Source: Escherichia phage PECP20
Sequence record: OQ873415.1
Direction: 5' to 3' (one strand)
Length of the DNA: 64,000 nt
The number at the start of each line of letters is the position of its first letter. The first letter of the stretch is position 1. Position numbers and translations under genes: made by a program. This document shows positions 17,611 to 46,136 of the stretch, in pieces. The notes beneath the pieces were generated by a model, which was not told the DNA's origin, made no database searches, and worked only from the letters and a program-made list of their open reading frames with translations.

Positions 17611-17656
17611 AACGTTTTATTCATTCCACTTAATTGTTAGGAGTATAGTACCATTA

Positions 17657-17818
17657 TCAGTGTTGATTGTAAACGGCTTTTTCTACACTTTTAACGTAAT
17701 CAGTGTAGTCTTCCTGTTCGTACGAGTGTAAGGCCAAGAACGTGGCTAATAGTTCATTATAGACTAAAGCCTCACGCTCACGTTCTGCCTCTACTACGTT
17801 CTGAAGATTATGGCTCAT
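17657..17818 (-). CDS. hypothetical small acidic protein
   Basis: ORF track 17657..17872 trimmed to internal ATG abutting upstream stop; overlaps asiA early promoter region. Confidence 0.3.
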   Translation of the reverse strand: MSHNLQNVVEAEREREALVYNELLATFLALHSYEQEDYTDYVKSVEKAVYNQH

Positions 17819-20140: not shown

Positions 20141-20169
20141 ATAATATCATGTTTGAAGCAAAAGTAAAC
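20141..20169 (-). promoter_or_regulatory. Early promoter upstream of motA: -35 GTTTAC, 17-nt spacer, -10 TATTAT
   Basis: Near-duplicate of the 20462-20490 promoter including flanking ttgataggtctataatatcatgtttgaagca. Confidence 0.55.
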
Positions 20170-20461: not shown

Positions 20462-20490
20462 ATAATATCATGTTTGAAGCACATGTAAAC
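20462..20490 (-). promoter_or_regulatory. Early (sigma70-type) promoter: -35 GTTTAC, 17-nt spacer, -10 TATTAT
   Basis: Minus strand GTTTACatgtgcttcaaacatgaTATTAT; upstream of ORF 20207-20422. Confidence 0.55.
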
Positions 20491-32715: not shown

Positions 32716-32774
32716 ATTATTCTCCTCTGGTTAATATGGTTATAATATCAAAACCAGAGGAGAAGTAAACAACT

Positions 32775-34276: not shown

Positions 34277-34306
34277 ATTATACTCCAACCATCCTTGGTT
34301 GTAAAC
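34277..34306 (-). promoter_or_regulatory. Early promoter upstream of ORF 33751-34245
   Basis: Minus strand GTTTAC ... GTATAAT (plus text attatact ... gtaaac). Confidence 0.45.
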
Positions 34307-34998: not shown

Positions 34999-36312
34999 TC
35001 AAATAAAATGGACGTCAAAACGACCACGAGTTGTGCCGACATACAATAGCTGTTTAGCTAATTCTGAATCGGCATAATGGATACACGGTGTATAAACAAA
35101 GGCCGTGTCAACAGACATACCCTGAGCCTTATGGAAGGTTGATACAGGTAGCGCCTTCACCTTAGTGAACATGCGTTTAGCATCCCAGAATTTACTCCAT
35201 GGAGCTTTACCACCTTTATTCCAGAATTTGTATGTTTCTGCGGTCTTAGCCAAAAACAAATTGAATTTATAAAGCTCTTCTTCGGAAGAAATAACCTTTA
35301 TATCCTCGCGGACGTATTCTTCATCATCCCCATATGTTTCTACTGTAAGATTCCAGTATCGTATCATATATTCGCCTGAAACACCACGTGCTTTAACGAA
35401 TGTAGACGTTTCTACAGCATCTCGAATACGAACGAATTGCCCGTTATTGAAAAGCATTTCGGTCATATTTTTGCCATCTAGCTTATACGTCTTGGTAAAC
35501 GGCTCTTGTAGAACAATGACTTCGTCTTTAATAAATGGCTTTTCTGTTTCAAGAAGTTTTCGGCGAATAATTGAATTTAACTTGTCCACCGACTTATTTG
35601 TGAATGCCATCATTCGATTTTCGAAAAGGTCTTCAGGAGTTTTAACGACATTAAAATAGTTCATCATATACGATTTAAGGTCTGTATATCCATGAACACC
35701 GTGCCCATCAACTACTTTATCATAAATCCATTTGCCATTACGAATATCAGTCGCAACATCAATAATTGGTGCATTGCTACGTTTAACTTCTGTAAGGTTG
35801 CATTGCACGAAGTCTTTGTGAGTGAAGAAAGGACTTAGATACGCAGTGGATTCGCCTGGGTCTACCGGACGAATCTGGCATCGGTCACCAATTCCAATTA
35901 CTGTGCACCATTTAGGGATACTAGCTAACATTATTTTAAACAGAGAACGGTCACACATTGATGCTTCATCAAATAACAGTACACGACACAAGGCTAAGTC
36001 GGGAACCTTTTTCTGTTCAAATAATACGTTTTCTTCGTATGTAGTTGGGTTGATTTTAAGAATGCTATGAATAGTCGATGCTTCTTGACCCGCAAGTTTG
36101 CTTAGAACCTTTTTAGCAGCATGTGTAGGGGCTGCTAAAATAATACCTGATTCTCCGGCAGAAATAAGGGCTTCAACGATGAATCTAGTAAGGGTTGTTT
36201 TACCTGTACCAGCAGGCCCGTTAATAGTTACGTGATGTTTCTTTTCTTTAATAGCTTTCATAACAACGTTGAAGGCGTTTTTCTGGCCTTCGGTCAAATC
36301 ATCAAATGTCAT
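34999..36312 (-). CDS. dda: DNA helicase Dda (SF1B)
   Basis: 437 aa (T4 Dda 439 aa); Walker A GPAGTGKTT, N-terminus MTFDDLTEGQKNAFN. Confidence 0.9.
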   Translation of the reverse strand: MTFDDLTEGQKNAFNVVMKAIKEKKHHVTINGPAGTGKTTLTRFIVEALISAGESGIILAAPTHAAKKVLSKLAGQEASTIHSILKINPTTYEENVLFEQKKVPDLALCRVLLFDEASMCDRSLFKIMLASIPKWCTVIGIGDRCQIRPVDPGESTAYLSPFFTHKDFVQCNLTEVKRSNAPIIDVATDIRNGKWIYDKVVDGHGVHGYTDLKSYMMNYFNVVKTPEDLFENRMMAFTNKSVDKLNSIIRRKLLETEKPFIKDEVIVLQEPFTKTYKLDGKNMTEMLFNNGQFVRIRDAVETSTFVKARGVSGEYMIRYWNLTVETYGDDEEYVREDIKVISSEEELYKFNLFLAKTAETYKFWNKGGKAPWSKFWDAKRMFTKVKALPVSTFHKAQGMSVDTAFVYTPCIHYADSELAKQLLYVGTTRGRFDVHFI

Positions 36313-36620
36313 CGTAAAGTCCCTGCAATTGGAATACTAACAATACGGCCAGTATCTAGAATTCGTTGATACAATCTTTGCGTCTCCGCATCTAGTTTAA
36401 TGTGTTTCATTTCAAGCTTATTAAACCAGAACTTACGCGGAGTTTCGACCATTCTTAGAACTCCCATTTTTAAATCTGTTTTATACTGTGTTTTCAAAGT
36501 ATCGAAAACTTTATCTGCAATATCCTTTCTAAAAAATACTGCAGGACGATGTTCATCAAGTGGAACTGGGACAGTAAATCCTTCCATATCTCGATAAACT
36601 ATTGCATATACATAAACCAT
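36309..36620 (-). CDS. hypothetical protein (dda.1 position)
   Basis: 103-aa ORF, ATGA overlap with dda. Confidence 0.45.
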   Translation of the reverse strand: MVYVYAIVYRDMEGFTVPVPLDEHRPAVFFRKDIADKVFDTLKTQYKTDLKMGVLRMVETPRKFWFNKLEMKHIKLDAETQRLYQRILDTGRIVSIPIAGTLR

Positions 36621-36622
36621 AA

Positions 36623-37369
36623 TTAACCTTTAATCAGTTGGAATAATGATGCGCTAAGTGGTAGGCCACGTTTCAATTTTAATTTACCAATGAAACCAAT
36701 CTTTTCAAAACGTTGCAGACCTTGGATAACTTTATCATATGTATCGAAAAGCGATTCAGCGTCAGTTAATTTAGTTTTAGTTTTCCAGTCAGAGCCTTTA
36801 AGAAGAACGTTGAGTTTAGTAAGTTCATGGCCTTCTGCTTGATGCGAGCCATTAATGCGTGCTTTCAAAGCAACAATTCTAAGTTTAGATTCGTTAGATA
36901 AAGGTTGATTTTTCATCATGTTCGTCATATGCTTAACACGATTTTCACGTTTTGCTCGGATTTTTAAAATAGTATCATAAACCTTTTTGATTTGGGCCCA
37001 TTTCTTCTCGTCGAGATTAAGTTTCTCTACTTTACGGGCAGAAGGATTAGCGATACGCCTTGCAATGGCATCACGTTTCTCGATAAGTTCTTCTAATGTT
37101 AAATCGGAACGAGCCGTGTTATATTTTTTCTTAACTGGGATAACATTACCTTTAATGTAGCCGATATCGTTATCAAAACGTTCTAAGGATAATTTCTCAC
37201 CTTCAACAGAGTTATTGAAAGATTCACCTGAGTAAGCGCAGACCTTTTGATCAAGAATGTTTTTAAGGTAATTAAAGTCTAAGTTAAAATCCTTAGAGCG
37301 TCTCTTCGCAGAAGCTCTGGTGTGGTCAAGACGACGATTGATTTTGTTAATTTTATTATTTGATAACAT
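36623..37369 (-). CDS. srd: Srd-like protein (by position)
   Basis: 248 aa (T4 Srd 250 aa), between dda.1 and modB as in T4; basic, Lys/Arg-rich. Confidence 0.45.
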   Translation of the reverse strand: MLSNNKINKINRRLDHTRASAKRRSKDFNLDFNYLKNILDQKVCAYSGESFNNSVEGEKLSLERFDNDIGYIKGNVIPVKKKYNTARSDLTLEELIEKRDAIARRIANPSARKVEKLNLDEKKWAQIKKVYDTILKIRAKRENRVKHMTNMMKNQPLSNESKLRIVALKARINGSHQAEGHELTKLNVLLKGSDWKTKTKLTDAESLFDTYDKVIQGLQRFEKIGFIGKLKLKRGLPLSASLFQLIKG

Positions 37370-37426
37370 AATATTTTCCTCTGTCTTACGGACGTTAAGG
37401 TCATTTAGCTGATAAGCTTATAATAT

Positions 37427-37448
37427 CATGCCCTCAGGTAGTGTACAC
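37427..37448 (-). promoter_or_regulatory. Early promoter-like element upstream of srd-like gene
   Basis: Plus text cttataatatcatg...gtgtacac; same family as other early promoters. Confidence 0.4.
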
Positions 37449-37522
37449 TCTTTTTTCGTAAAATGCTTTAATTTTTTATGTGTTATAATGGTTCTGAGTT
37501 CCATCCGGTTATTCCAATCCAG

Positions 37523-38131
37523 TCAGTAACCGACAATAGACAGATTCCAGATTGTATAATTTCCATCTTGAATAATAGAATCTACACGCAGTGTAGTCCC
37601 TATAGGGAGCATAAATTCACATTCGTCAGATATAAGTCTAGCATTAGACCGTCTTGTCGCTTCAGGGAAAGCTCCATTGAACTCACAAGATGGCGCAGCC
37701 AGAATCATGTTAAGCATATGTTCACGGAAGTTGAAAGCAAATGGTGCATCTTTGATGCAGAACATATTAAATGTTCCGTAAAAATTATACGAAGCAAAGT
37801 TACGTGCTACACCGAACACTGGACTAAAGCTCATTACTCTGTCAAATTTAATAATACTACCAATGCCTTTATCATCGAGTGTGGCCATAGTTTTCTTAGA
37901 GATTCCACGATACATTGTCTCAGGAACAGAAGACGTCCAATTTCTACGAACAATTGCACTTAAATCTTGTTGGATGCTATCAGGCTTGTTTTCCATACAC
38001 TGCCATAGTACACTTTGTTCAATGTCGCTGAATTGACTATCAATTTCGTACTGCAATTCATCTTGATATTCAGGGCATTGAGCACGACGAACCATTTCTT
38101 CAATTTCACACTCGTTATACGGCATAAACAT
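37523..38131 (-). CDS. modB: ADP-ribosyltransferase ModB
   Basis: 202 aa; R-S-E triad context (MYRGI ... SFS ... ECEF) typical of Alt/Mod ARTs; position as in T4. Confidence 0.6.
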   Translation of the reverse strand: MFMPYNECEIEEMVRRAQCPEYQDELQYEIDSQFSDIEQSVLWQCMENKPDSIQQDLSAIVRRNWTSSVPETMYRGISKKTMATLDDKGIGSIIKFDRVMSFSPVFGVARNFASYNFYGTFNMFCIKDAPFAFNFREHMLNMILAAPSCEFNGAFPEATRRSNARLISDECEFMLPIGTTLRVDSIIQDGNYTIWNLSIVGY

Positions 38132-38188
38132 TTAGGTTTCTCCTGTGGTTGATAAAGGTATAGTATCATCATCGGAAGAGTTTGTACA

Positions 38189-38770
38189 CTAAAAATTCAA
38201 CATTTTCAAATGAATGATTTTGTATAACCGAGATAAAGGGTCATATTCTAAGTCTTCAATTTCTACAATCTCAAATCTAGAGATACCTGAGACCATGTAT
38301 TCTTGTTCAGATTCAATCATATCTAGGACGTCAACACGTTTTTCTTCCATAACATGCTTAGGGTTCTTTCCGGCGAGTACAATGTTAACCATGTTTTGGT
38401 AGTAATCGAAAATGAACGGAGCATTCCTGAGACTAAGAATAGTGTACGTTTGATATTCCCAACTCCCAGAGAACTGTCTGGCCGTACCAAAGTCTGTTGT
38501 AAACGATGTTACTCGTCCAGGAGACCAATGGCATCCTACAGATAACAATGAAAGATGTTCTACTTCTTCTGGAGTTACACCACGGTAGAGTTCTACTGGT
38601 ACTGTAGAAGTCATATGCTTACGAACAAGACGGTCTAATTCATAGTGGAAATCTGGGTCTTCCTTATAATCAGTGCAAGCCCAGAGAATGTTTTGTTCTT
38701 GTTTAGTGAATTTATCATCAATTAGTGCTGCGAGATATTCGCGTTCTTGAAGTTCAGATTGACATGTCAT
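38189..38770 (-). CDS. modA: ADP-ribosyltransferase ModA
   Basis: 193 aa; LYRGV ... TSFTT ... EQEYMV motifs; paralogous to modB. Confidence 0.6.
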   Translation of the reverse strand: MTCQSELQEREYLAALIDDKFTKQEQNILWACTDYKEDPDFHYELDRLVRKHMTSTVPVELYRGVTPEEVEHLSLLSVGCHWSPGRVTSFTTDFGTARQFSGSWEYQTYTILSLRNAPFIFDYYQNMVNIVLAGKNPKHVMEEKRVDVLDMIESEQEYMVSGISRFEIVEIEDLEYDPLSRLYKIIHLKMLNF

Positions 38771-38986
38771 GATAGACCTCCATTTAAAGATAAGCCTATC
38801 ATAACACGAGAGGAGGGAATGTAAACTACTTTTTAAGCTTTCCTACTAAAGGTCCATCAGGGCCAGGTTGTTCTAACATGAATAACGATGCTTTAAAAAG
38901 CAATGTTAACCCTTTCACCATTCGATACCATGTCTCAAAGTCTTTTTCCTTGATTTCTAGTAAGAATTTCTCTTTAAATTTCTCTT

Positions 38987-39175
38987 TCATTTCCAAGGAC
39001 TCCATGGTGGAGGGTCGTCATAATAAGAGGCAAGGTCTTTCAGGGCTTCAACAGGTAAACTAAAGCCGTGTCGTTGTATAATACTATCTAGTTCATCAAC
39101 AAGTTCACTACGATGCACTTTAGGAGCCTTGACTTCAGGCTCATCAAACATACTCATAAGGTCCATCTTATTCAC
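38987..39175 (-). CDS. hypothetical small protein
   Basis: 62-aa ORF, modA.x region. Confidence 0.35.
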   Translation of the reverse strand: MNKMDLMSMFDEPEVKAPKVHRSELVDELDSIIQRHGFSLPVEALKDLASYYDDPPPWSPWK

Positions 39176-39632
39176 CTAAATAAAAACTAGCAGGTTCAGA
39201 GAATGTTTCTAGTGCTACACCTTTTGTCTTAAAAAATTTCCAAATAGCTCGTTGCAAATGGATTAAATCTGCTAATGATGTAATAAAGTATTTTTTGGCA
39301 AAATACGTATGGTCTCGCTTTTCAAACAGGTCTAAACGCTTTTCAGGATTCACATAAACAGCATTTTCTGTAGATTCATAACCTAAGTCCTTTATGCCTT
39401 CTTCAAGACTAAACGGAGAATTTTTAGAATGAGTAATAGCTCCAACTCGCTCTACACGAATTTTGTAACCTTTAGGAATCTGCAATTTGCAGAATTCTTC
39501 TACGATATATTGCGGATTATTTAGACTTTTGTTAATGAGAATAGCTATTTCTAGTGGAGTCTTATCTTCTACTGGTATATGTTTAAATGACTTGGCTTCA
39601 AGCAAATACATTTTAAATAACATAGCATCCAT
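39168..39632 (-). CDS. hypothetical protein
   Basis: 154-aa ORF; upstream small ORF stop overlaps its ATG. Confidence 0.45.
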   Translation of the reverse strand: MDAMLFKMYLLEAKSFKHIPVEDKTPLEIAILINKSLNNPQYIVEEFCKLQIPKGYKIRVERVGAITHSKNSPFSLEEGIKDLGYESTENAVYVNPEKRLDLFEKRDHTYFAKKYFITSLADLIHLQRAIWKFFKTKGVALETFSEPASFYLGE

Positions 39633-39810
39633 TATAATTTCCTCGATGGTTCACCCATATAAAGTTTTACAATACGTTCGCCTTCATCTTCGACGAGCTT
39701 TTCTTCATGTTTCTGGAATTCTTTAGCCATATTCTCTTCAAGAACATCTAACCAATCTTCTGGTCCGACTCCATCATTCCAGCTTTTAAACCATTTTACT
39801 ATTCTGTTCA

Positions 39811-40122
39811 CTAATCACAACTCCCAGAGTCCGAACTACAATCGGAATAACTTGAACCAGAATCTCCAGACCAGGATGATACGTAAGAATGATTATAACT
39901 TGAAGAGTTTGAAGCAGACTTAGGACGAATAACTTCTTCCATCACGCCGTCACCAATATATTCCCAACTTTTTTCATGTGTATCAGGAATAGGCATCATA
40001 CCTTCGCCTGGTTTAACAACAAATAACTTCTTCAGCATCGTAAGCATTAATTGTTCCTCGAACAAAACGAACACCACCATCATCCCAACGGATTTCGGCA
40101 TTAAATTTGACGTCTTCACCAT
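39811..40122 (-). CDS. hypothetical protein with Ser-rich low-complexity C-terminus; true start uncertain
   Basis: ORF track 103 aa; C-terminus KSASNSSSYNHSYVSSWSGDSGSSYSDCSSDSGSCD; overlaps upstream ORF in another frame. Confidence 0.3.
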   Translation of the reverse strand: MVKTSNLMPKSVGMMVVFVLFEEQLMLTMLKKLFVVKPGEGMMPIPDTHEKSWEYIGDGVMEEVIRPKSASNSSSYNHSYVSSWSGDSGSSYSDCSSDSGSCD

Positions 40123-40240: not shown

Positions 40241-40314
40241 ATTGTTCTCCTCTTGAGTAAGTAAGAATATCTTAACATAGTTTTTAGTGGATGTAAACTC
40301 TAGAAACGAAAAAA

Positions 40315-44150: not shown

Positions 44151-44180
44151 ACTATACTATAGACCATCTATAATGTAAAC
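44151..44180 (-). promoter_or_regulatory. Early promoter upstream of sp
   Basis: Minus strand GTTTAC ... TATAGT with gataggactactata motif. Confidence 0.45.
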
Positions 44181-44184
44181 AAAT

Positions 44185-44433
44185 TTATTCTTTTTCGCGA
44201 ATAATAATTACTTGTTGAGGCTGCTGAGCAGATTTCTTTTCGGCAACGATAGACCAAATTAAAGTTCCAATCCAACCAATCATCGTCCAGTTAAAGAGTA
44301 AAGATACAAAGAAGATTGCTGTTGTGCTTTTTGTGCCACGAATAAGTGCGATTACCCAAGGCAACATGTAAATGATGATTGAACCAATACCTGCGATTAA
44401 AACTGCCACTGAACTAGCTACGAATAATTCCAT
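44185..44433 (-). CDS. small integral membrane protein (61.4 position)
   Basis: 82 aa, two predicted TM helices, Trp-rich. Confidence 0.45.
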   Translation of the reverse strand: MELFVASSVAVLIAGIGSIIIYMLPWVIALIRGTKSTTAIFFVSLLFNWTMIGWIGTLIWSIVAEKKSAQQPQQVIIIREKE

Positions 44434-44494
44434 GTTAATTTCCTCTTGATTTGTTATGTTTATAATATCTCGTTTTAACTTTGGCGTAAACCAA

Positions 44495-44863
44495 TTAATT
44501 AAATTTGTTTAAACGTTCAATACACTGGACGTAGTTATTCGCGATTTGTTTCTGGGAAGGCTCTTTGCCAGTTGTTTCAACATAGCGAATGAATGCGATT
44601 TCAGTAGCCTGTAAGCAATGTTCTTTAACGCGTTGTTCTTTTGACAATGCTACAGTATCAGAGTCACGATAACGTTGAGCATGGGCATCAGCTTGAATCA
44701 TTCGATTACCTACAGTAACCGGGTCTTCCACTTCGACTTTAGGTTGGTTGTACTGTTTAACATTCGGGTTATAAATCAATTGGCCAACATTATTAGGGAT
44801 AAAGCCATGAGCACCACATCCAGTTAATCCGAATACCATTGCTAAAGCTATTAATTTTTTCAT
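44495..44863 (-). CDS. putative lipoprotein
   Basis: 122 aa; signal peptide with lipobox LTGC. Confidence 0.5.
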   Translation of the reverse strand: MKKLIALAMVFGLTGCGAHGFIPNNVGQLIYNPNVKQYNQPKVEVEDPVTVGNRMIQADAHAQRYRDSDTVALSKEQRVKEHCLQATEIAFIRYVETTGKEPSQKQIANNYVQCIERLNKFN

Positions 44864-44923
44864 TTCAATTTCCTCTGTAGTTGATAGAAAGATAGTAACA
44901 CAGTATGTGGTGCTTGTAAACAG

Positions 44924-45136
44924 CTATTTTAAACTTTTGCGAAATTTGCGTTTTTCTTGACGAATCTGTCGTTTAGTCGGACGTACAGCAAATTTAACGA
45001 AGTCCACTTTGCCGTGTGGAAACTTTTCAGATGCTTCACAGTCCATCATTAGTTCCCATCCTTCTAGAATAAGAGCTTTCCATTGTGTAGTTGATGCAAA
45101 TTCGTATGTTGATGGTTTAAACACAGTTGAATACAT
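44924..45136 (-). CDS. hypothetical small protein
   Basis: ORF track 44924..45175 trimmed to internal ATG abutting dmd stop. Confidence 0.35.
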   Translation of the reverse strand: MYSTVFKPSTYEFASTTQWKALILEGWELMMDCEASEKFPHGKVDFVKFAVRPTKRQIRQEKRKFRKSLK

Positions 45137-45137
45137 A

Positions 45138-45329
45138 TTATCCTCTGAAATCAGCTTCAAAAACTTTCTCGTCATTAATAAATGCTTTAACTAATGCATT
45201 GTTCACTTCAGCAAGTTGTACCGTAACCCACTCGATTTCTTCGCGATCACCTGATAATATGATATCTTTAGTGAACATCTCGCCGCTTTTAAACCAGCCA
45301 ATAAAAGTAACTTTAGTTAATTTGCTCAT
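45138..45329 (-). CDS. dmd: putative Dmd-like antitoxin (inhibitor of RnlA/LsoA-type host toxins)
   Basis: 63 aa from ATG at 45329 (ATGA overlap); GWFK...MFTK...AEVN.ALVKAFI.D.KV.EAD.RG resembles T4 Dmd as recalled; correct map position upstream of gene 41. Confidence 0.45.
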   Translation of the reverse strand: MSKLTKVTFIGWFKSGEMFTKDIILSGDREEIEWVTVQLAEVNNALVKAFINDEKVFEADFRG

Positions 45330-45643
45330 ATTTCCTCGCAAAATGCCCATTCAGCATGATAAACTGTAGCACCTTTAGTATCATTCATTTGAACTACATC
45401 TACCGGAGAAATTACTCGATAGAGACGTGGTTCACCTCCATAAGAGCGTGCTGCTCGTCCTGCGTAAATCTTTGCTAAACCGATATCTTCAGTAAAGAAT
45501 ACACGATTCAAGTTTTTCTTACGTCCGGTTTCAGACAGAACTCCTGTTTCTTCAGGAGGACAAAGCATGTTTTCGATTTTAGCTGAACTACTTGAACCGT
45601 GATAAAAAATCTTAAATTCTGCTTTACAATCGATGGTTTTCAT
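45326..45643 (-). CDS. hypothetical protein
   Basis: 105-aa ORF with early promoter at 45668-45698. Confidence 0.4.
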   Translation of the reverse strand: MKTIDCKAEFKIFYHGSSSSAKIENMLCPPEETGVLSETGRKKNLNRVFFTEDIGLAKIYAGRAARSYGGEPRLYRVISPVDVVQMNDTKGATVYHAEWAFCEEI

Positions 45644-45698
45644 TTTGTTCTCCAGTAGTTGATAGGTCTATAATAACACAACTACTGGAGAAGTAAAC

Positions 45699-46073
45699 TT
45701 AAAAACGTAATTTAGATATATCTGCGTTGATTTCGTTTTGGTTTGCGTCGTATGCAATTAAACGAACCGCTTTAGATGGGTCATTCAATGCATAGAAATG
45801 ATGGAACATTGCTCGAACGATATCACCATTTACGAGTTCTACCTGGATAGGAGAACCTTTTTCGAGTTGGAAATGTTCATAAGCTTTGATGGTTCGCAGA
45901 TAATCAAGTTTTTGATTTCCAGCTCCAACTATTTGTACGATACGTTTGCCCATGTTTTCCATACGAGATACAATAGTTTTAGGAGCAAGAATAACGTAGG
46001 TTGCCAGTGGAGAAACTACTTCAACAGTTGTGTTTTCGGTGATTGCAGTAAAAATTGCTTGAGACATATTCAT
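45699..46073 (-). CDS. hypothetical protein
   Basis: 124-aa ORF with early promoter at 46104-46132. Confidence 0.45.
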   Translation of the reverse strand: MNMSQAIFTAITENTTVEVVSPLATYVILAPKTIVSRMENMGKRIVQIVGAGNQKLDYLRTIKAYEHFQLEKGSPIQVELVNGDIVRAMFHHFYALNDPSKAVRLIAYDANQNEINADISKLRF

Positions 46074-46136
46074 AATGTTTTCCTCTTGGTTGGTGTAAGT
46101 TCATCATATCATGCCTAGAGGAAGATGTAAACCCCG

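Follow-up and report, generated by a model that had tools for sequence, protein, structure and literature searches.

On the minus strand of Escherichia phage PECP20 (OQ873415.1), two adjacent genes directly upstream of srd encode proteins related to the ModA and ModB ADP-ribosyltransferases of phage T4. We analysed this locus within a 64,000-nucleotide stretch of the record, referred to here as the window. The window belongs to a Mosigvirus, an RB69-like T-even phage, with proteins 94–97% identical to those of RB69 and a DNA identity of 96–98% to many Mosigvirus coliphages. The upstream gene, up, and the downstream gene, dn, are separated by a 57-nt spacer, and both are full-length open reading frames (ORFs) with a Shine-Dalgarno sequence, which in the case of up is GGAGG, 7 nt 5′ of the ATG. 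A predicted early promoter precedes each gene (Table 1). The evidence set out below makes it very probable that this modB-modA pair of Mosigvirus encodes arginine ADP-ribosyltransferases of the Mod family, which are transcribed early and serve in host takeover.

Both proteins match PHROG 832, 'RNA polymerase ADP-ribosylase', with E values of 1.1e-36 for up and 3.7e-38 for dn. By BLASTP, up shares 36% identity with T4 ModB (90 bits, E = 3e-27) and 26% with T4 ModA (41 bits, E = 2e-09), and dn shares 31% with ModB (107 bits, E = 5e-34) and 34% with ModA (72 bits, E = 3e-20). The two window proteins are 32% identical to each other (87 bits, E = 2e-26). Close homologues exist in other phages: the dn protein is 100% identical to a 'ribosyltransferase' of phage CAU_ECP01, the up protein is 99% identical to a phage CCU7 protein, and relatives carry the precomputed Pfam assignment PF26816 in the protein database. 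Local scans of Pfam and NCBIfam returned no family for up or dn; since T4 ModA and ModB likewise lack a match there, this marks a gap in the libraries rather than evidence against membership. The family is small, with 127 clusters (50% identity) at E ≤ 1e-3 and 20 at E ≤ 1e-30 among 1.84 billion representatives. The genomic setting is that of the family, as the two genes lie in an early-gene block directly upstream of srd-dda.1-dda, and the order modA.2-like / up / dn / srd / dda.1 / dda is identical to that of T4 and RB69. These results confirm up and dn as paralogues of the phage Mod family, with the R-S-ExE ADP-ribosyltransferase signature. An earlier reading made from the sequence alone had described two adjacent ADP-ribosyltransferase paralogues, and its ORF boundaries proved exact.

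The catalytic motifs quoted in that reading, R, S-x-S and E-x-E, are all present. In dn they comprise MYRGI (R75), SFS (S101) and ECEF (E170 and E172); in up they comprise LYRGV (R63), TSF, in which the motif serine is S89 and forms part of S-F-T, and EQEY (E155 and E157). Alignments of 14, 23 and 35 members of the family show no variation at the Arg-Gly of YRG, the serine of S-x-S/T or either glutamate of E-x-E. The alignment to T4 ModA and ModB that had been proposed as a check superposes the catalytic arginine, serine and both glutamates of up and dn on R72, S96 and E163/E165 of ModA and on R73, S99 and E171/E173 of ModB, with no loss of a catalytic residue in either window protein. Both T4 enzymes carry the arginine-specific R-S-EXE motif (PMC10468400; PMC11404850), and substitutions within it abolish catalysis in ModB (R73A,G74A; PMC10468400) and in ModA (E165A; PMC11404850).

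Tandem paralogues often lose function, and up is the more variable of the two genes among Mosigviruses, mostly 90–95% identical as against 95–99% for dn; one member of the pair might thus be a catalytically dead duplicate, a pseudoenzyme or a decaying gene. We regard this as very improbable. All five catalytic-motif residues are intact in both proteins, the ORFs are full length and preceded by Shine-Dalgarno sequences, both predicted folds are confident, and both genes are retained across Mosig- and Dhakaviruses. In addition, the ratio of nonsynonymous to synonymous substitution rates (dN/dS) between Mosigvirus genomes is 0.08–0.16 for up and 0.17 for dn, indicating that both genes are kept by purifying selection.

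We know of no solved structure of any Mod-family protein, so the evidence on the fold rests on predictions. The AlphaFold2 models reached a predicted local distance difference test score (pLDDT) of 94.6 and a predicted TM-score (pTM) of 0.87 for dn, and 89.4 and 0.84 for up. In Foldseek searches against the PDB, the top 50 matches of each model were all ADP-ribosyltransferase toxins of the R-S-E clade (C3 exoenzyme, iota toxin Ia, CDTa, VIP2, Vis, Certhrax, HopU1, XopAI and Tre1), at probability 1.00, E values of 4e-6 to 2e-4 and TM-scores of 0.4–0.58. Against BFVD, a collection of predicted viral structures, the dn model matched phage proteins annotated as ModB or ModA with TM-scores of 0.85–0.86. 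Compared with PDB sequences, a family profile gave marginal matches only, in which YRG, S-x-S and ExE line up with the motifs of Vis and XopAI. The sequence matches of the single proteins in the PDB (trigger factor, nucleophosmin and Cas9; E = 0.02–0.9) are at chance level and were set aside. The models thus predict an R-S-E ADP-ribosyltransferase fold for both up and dn. The toxins share this predicted fold and the arrangement of the motifs at a sequence identity of only 9–17%; unlike the single-domain up and dn, they act as effectors that are secreted or injected and often carry additional domains.

Transcription of the pair was considered next to that of srd, as a promoter is predicted in front of each of the three genes, in every case in an intergenic position 20–50 nt before the start codon. 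A generic sigma-70 scan scored the site before up at 10/12 and the site before srd at 9/12, both with a TG before the −10 element. Such matches to the Escherichia coli consensus prove nothing alone, since the scan returned 13 sites in the region against 12.6 expected from shuffled sequence, without enrichment. T4-type early promoters have GTTTAC as their −35 element (Nolan et al. 2006; PMC1524935); the type further shows a spacer of ~17 nt, TGn, a −10 element TAnnnT and an A-rich UP region. The window contains 19 copies of the pattern GTTTAC-N16-18-TANNNT where 3.2 would be expected, 19 being reached in 0/100 shuffles; 17 of these 19 sites are on the minus strand, and the promoter of up is one of the 19. 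T4, Dhakavirus, Gaprivervirus and RB69 keep its hexamers in front of modB, and the promoter of srd is shared by the window with T4, Dhakavirus and Gaprivervirus. The internal promoter, in the 57-nt spacer between up and dn, overlaps the TAG stop codon of up with its −35 element. It is common to Dhakavirus, where GTTTACA..TACTAT stands at the same place in a diverged spacer, and is absent in Gaprivervirus, which has a 47-nt gap, and in T4, whose modB and modA overlap by 4 nt. For RB69, the early promoters Pe:13466, Pe:12829 and Pe:12088 were predicted in Additional file 3 of Nolan et al. 2006 (PMC1524935); in RB69 coordinates, the first falls ahead of modB, the second between modB and modA, and the third ahead of srd, and the RB69 sequence at the sites is nearly identical to that of the window.

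Two observations count against the internal promoter. It reaches only ~8/12 of the E. coli sigma-70 consensus, below the threshold of the generic scan, and its −35 variant, GTGTAC, is marginally enriched, with 6 sites against 1.7 expected and 2/100 shuffles reaching 6; two of the four minus-strand sites of this variant directly precede dn and srd. Together with the unenriched generic scan and the lack of a promoter between modB and modA in T4 and Gaprivervirus, such figures would be expected if the promoter-like sites were chance matches and the genes were co-transcribed from further upstream, like the overlapping modB-modA of T4. This explanation appears improbable, because the phage-specific motif shows a six-fold enrichment and a strand bias, genera with diverged spacers have kept the hexamers, the three sites share their intergenic placement, and an independent prediction for RB69, based on a hidden Markov model (HMM), called the same three. 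Sequence comparisons therefore support both mod promoters as predicted. The sequence-only reading had placed them at 38797–38826 and 38161–38190; the former is borne out by its scan score, its conservation across genera, the enrichment of the motif and the RB69 prediction, and the latter, though missed by the generic scan, by its fit to the phage motif variant, its retention in Dhakavirus and the RB69 prediction.

Table 1. Coordinates of the mod genes, their catalytic codons, predicted promoters and neighbouring genes in the window
Feature	Coordinates	Strand	Details	Basis
up, upstream Mod-family ADP-ribosyltransferase gene, modB position	38189..38770	minus	193 aa	ORF
dn, downstream Mod-family ADP-ribosyltransferase gene, modA position adjoining srd	37523..38131	minus	202 aa	ORF
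Catalytic codons of up	R63 38584-38582; S89 38506-38504; E155 38308-38306; E157 38302-38300	minus		
Catalytic codons of dn	R75 37909-37907; S101 37831-37829; E170 37624-37622; E172 37618-37616	minus		
Promoter of up	38798..38826	minus	−35 GTTTAC (38826-38821), 17-nt spacer, TG, −10 TATGAT (38803-38798)	Predicted
Internal promoter of dn	38160..38189	minus	−35 GTGTAC (38189-38184), 18-nt spacer, −10 TACTAT (38165-38160)	Predicted, pattern match
Promoter of srd	37420..37448	minus	GTGTAC-17-TATTAT with TG; A-rich, UP-like stretch in front	Predicted, pattern match
srd, Srd anti-sigma factor homologue	36623..37369	minus	248 aa	PHROG 1400, E = 6e-100
modA.2-like ORF	38987-39175	same strand as mod genes	62 aa	PHROG 1647
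Mrh/ModA.3-like gene	39168..39632	same strand as mod genes		PHROGs

The G of the −35 element at each of the two mod promoters is also the last base of the TAG stop codon that ends the preceding ORF (TAGTTTAC, 38821–38828; TAGTGTAC, 38184–38191), an arrangement that is also found in RB69, Dhakavirus and Gaprivervirus. Other GTTTAC-type sites occur on the minus strand, for example at 17645–17674, 20141–20169, 20462–20490, 32742–32770, 34277–34306, 40269–40298 and 44151–46132, and together these sites map out candidate early promoters across the window. The spacer between dn and srd (37370–37522) holds, apart from the promoter, several blocks that do not vary between the window, T4, Dhakavirus and Gaprivervirus: CATTATA, ~40 nt upstream of the srd −35 element, TTAAAGC, and CGTCCGTAAGA in the 5′ untranslated region of srd. 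This spacer has no Rfam match, and no T4 middle promoter is listed in the corresponding interval.

In T4, the order of transcription is modA.2, modB, modA, srd. The reference annotation of RB69 applies the name modB to the upstream gene of 193 aa and modA to the downstream one, and Dhakavirus LHE83 and Gaprivervirus VR7 are annotated with the same modB-then-modA naming. By position, up is modB and dn is modA: dn occupies the genomic place of T4 modA, between modB and srd, and up that of T4 modB, with ModB as its best T4 match. The names ModB and ModA in the sequence-only reading hold in this positional sense; which ORF was to bear which name was left ambiguous there, as the motifs of the 202-aa protein were listed first. 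Some searches follow the positional naming. With T4 ModA as the query, only the dn copy is found in Mosig- and Dhakavirus genomes (E < 1e-3); a ModA relative that is 60% identical to it (P0064) has the dn clade as its next-best match; and up as the query finds only modB in Tequatrovirus genomes.

Several findings speak against extending these names to a T4-like pairing of the proteins themselves. With both up and dn, T4 ModB gives a higher score than T4 ModA; T4 ModB itself scores 107 bits with dn, 90 with up, and 129 and 123 with single-copy genes of other genera. The best match of T4 ModA outside its own clade is the dn clade, yet the best T4 match of dn is ModB (107 versus 72 bits). Clade HMMs scored T4 ModA at 94 bits with the dn clade, 34 with the up clade and 94 with the single-copy genes, and T4 ModB at 124, 91 and 182 bits, respectively. 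Neighbour-joining (NJ) bootstrap trees were built with 14, 21 and 35 sequences over ~185 columns. The dn clade (Mosig-, Dhaka- and Gaprivervirus) and the up clade (Mosig- and Dhakavirus) each had 100% support; dn grouped with ModA in 22/200 and 5/100 bootstraps. Up and ModB were neither monophyletic (3/200 and 3/100 bootstraps) nor reciprocal best matches, a result that, with ~185 columns, reflects weak resolution rather than exclusion. A grouping of ModA with ModB had 4–6% support, and up and dn were sisters in 0/300 replicates, so that the pair is not a recent tandem duplication.

The number of mod genes points the same way. Among ten related genera sampled, a single mod gene stands in front of srd in Moon-, Gelderland-, Winkler-, Karam-, Kanagawa-, Marfa-, Jiaoda- and Krischvirus. 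The lone gene of most related genera and T4 ModB are equally close to each window paralogue, so that the division of labour seen in T4 is not necessarily ancestral. The single-copy genes belong to the same family, occupy the same position directly upstream of srd and keep the invariant residues, differing from the window in being one gene rather than two, and they are the closest relatives of up outside Mosig- and Dhakavirus (163 bits to Moonvirus Merlin). Pairwise scores, clade HMMs, the three NJ trees and isoelectric point (pI) and charge were all applied to the ModA/ModB identity of the two proteins and did not resolve the deep branching, pI failing to discriminate a ModA from a ModB type. 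The labels ModA and ModB are thus positional, and a one-to-one orthology with the T4 pair is not settled by sequence.

The upstream slot showed signs of exchange. Between the window and CAU_ECP01 there is one difference across 35600–38403 and there are 41 across ~38404–38900, a divergent patch that spans the promoter and the N-terminal two thirds of up. The patch has the look of a recombined segment with a breakpoint within up. On a larger scale, two lineages unrelated to each other occupy the upstream 'modB' slot, depending on the genus: the modB of Gaprivervirus VR7 (L004:1851-2411) groups with Jiaodavirus-like genes and not with up of Mosig- and Dhakavirus, which suggests cassette replacement in this slot.

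In our proposed mechanism, up and dn would act as single-domain NAD+:protein-arginine mono-ADP-ribosyltransferases of ~200 aa, members of the R-S-ExE clade together with the C3-, iota- and VIP2-type toxins. Directly after infection, the host sigma-70 RNA polymerase would transcribe the mod genes from phage early promoters, one before up and, in this lineage, a second in the spacer before dn. NAD+ would be bound through the arginine of the YRG motif and the serine of the S-x-S/T motif, and the second glutamate of ExE would serve to move ADP-ribose onto the side chains of arginines in host proteins, thereby contributing to host takeover. We infer the enzymatic activity and the early timing of up and dn by analogy to T4, in which ModA and ModB are early proteins (PMC9697503).

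The targets of the T4 enzymes differ. ModA modifies Arg265 in the alpha subunit of RNA polymerase (PMC2988021, PMC3014915), and ModB, besides modifying S1, EF-Tu and trigger factor, carries out RNAylation (PMC2988021, PMC3014915, PMC10468400); according to the RNAylation paper (Nature 2023), the basis of the difference between ModA and ModB is not understood (PMC10468400). By analogy, dn would modify Arg265 of both alpha subunits, leading to weaker UP-element- and activator-dependent transcription, and up would modify the translation proteins S1, EF-Tu and trigger factor, with the attachment of NAD-capped RNA as a possible further activity. We would give this T4-like assignment of targets to each paralogue an even chance at best. 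The Arg265 specificity has been shown only for T4 ModA, and RNAylation and the S1, EF-Tu and trigger factor targets are known only for T4 ModB.

It is conceivable, if on balance doubtful, that both proteins are active Mod enzymes whose targets depart from the T4 scheme, in that both are ModB-like, the roles are swapped, or one enzyme has a lineage-specific target such as a host defence protein. The greater closeness of both proteins to T4 ModB, the roughly equal distance of T4 ModA from the dn clade and the single-copy genes, and the failure of the trees to recover either dn with ModA or up with ModB are in line with such a departure, as are the two lineages in the upstream slot and the Mosigvirus recombination patch, which suggest modular turnover rather than a fixed pair. 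The T4 scheme draws its strength from a gene position that matches T4 exactly, from the dn clade being the nearest relative of T4 ModA and P0064 outside ModA, with up not detected at E < 1e-3, and from up detecting only ModB in T4-type genomes. A broader conjecture, which we consider unlikely, is that the Mosig/Dhakavirus pair does not correspond one-to-one to that of T4: dn would form a lineage of its own, the upstream slot would be exchangeable, targets including the attachment of NAD-capped RNA would be partitioned differently, and the internal promoter would uncouple the expression of the two genes.

The pair can be set beside its nearest known counterparts. RB69, the type species of Mosigvirus, carries both genes, likewise ordered and flanked by modA.2 and srd, with allelic differences only: up is identical to RB69 modB (RB69p019, NP_861709) at 182 of 193 residues and dn to RB69 modA (RB69p018, NP_861708) at 193 of 200, the RB69 modA being annotated from the second ATG, with 200 aa as against the 202 aa of dn. 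T4 ModB (NP_049636, 207 aa) resembles the window proteins as a Mod-family product of an early gene, as the upstream member of a pair and as the best T4 match of both up and dn; it differs in that its gene overlaps modA and has no promoter in between, where the window has a spacer with a predicted promoter. T4 ModA (NP_049635, 200 aa) belongs to the same family and, like dn, adjoins srd, but it represents a strongly diverged branch, and dn is closer to T4 ModB. T4 Alt, which shares PHROG 832, is a virion-packaged protein of ~680 aa and is not encoded in the window; an HMM scan of all six-frame ORFs of the window found no third Mod or Alt-like gene.

The neighbours of the pair are those of other T-even phages. 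The srd gene, the conserved neighbour downstream of dn that defines the modA position, is common to T4, RB69 and ten other genera. Further downstream on the same strand, PHROGs identify a dda.1-like ORF and the Dda helicase, and upstream of up, also on the same strand, two small ORFs, one of them modA.2-like. In CAU_ECP01, LHE83 and PTE-Eco05, homologues of the modA.2-like ORF bear the label 'molybdenum ABC transporter periplasmic molybdenum-binding protein (ModA)', evidently an annotation error due to a collision of names. The N-terminal ~100–150 residues of srd also match HNH endonuclease and endonuclease VII PHROGs (E = 6e-19 to 1e-11), which hints that the Srd 'anti-sigma factor' contains a nuclease-derived domain. 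Nothing independent supports a 161-aa ORF at 37478–37963 on the plus strand, antisense to dn, and it is in all likelihood a shadow ORF of the coding strand. Terminator-like hairpins at 37759–37745 and 37596–37582 were rejected as chance, as they have only three G-C pairs and lie inside the dn ORF. An Rfam scan of 36000–40000 gave no match.

The gene pair and its promoters are already known: modA and modB are annotated in RB69, ADP-ribosylases appear in many Mosigvirus records, and the promoters were predicted in 2006. The intact modB- and modA-position genes described here add nothing beyond the RB69 annotation and those promoter predictions. They do call for caution in annotation. As the labels are positional, both proteins are nearer to T4 ModB and most related genera have a single mod gene, transferring T4 target specificities to RB69-like phages exceeds the evidence. 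For natural variants of the RNAylating enzyme, both paralogues are accordingly worth considering, and not only the gene in the modB position.

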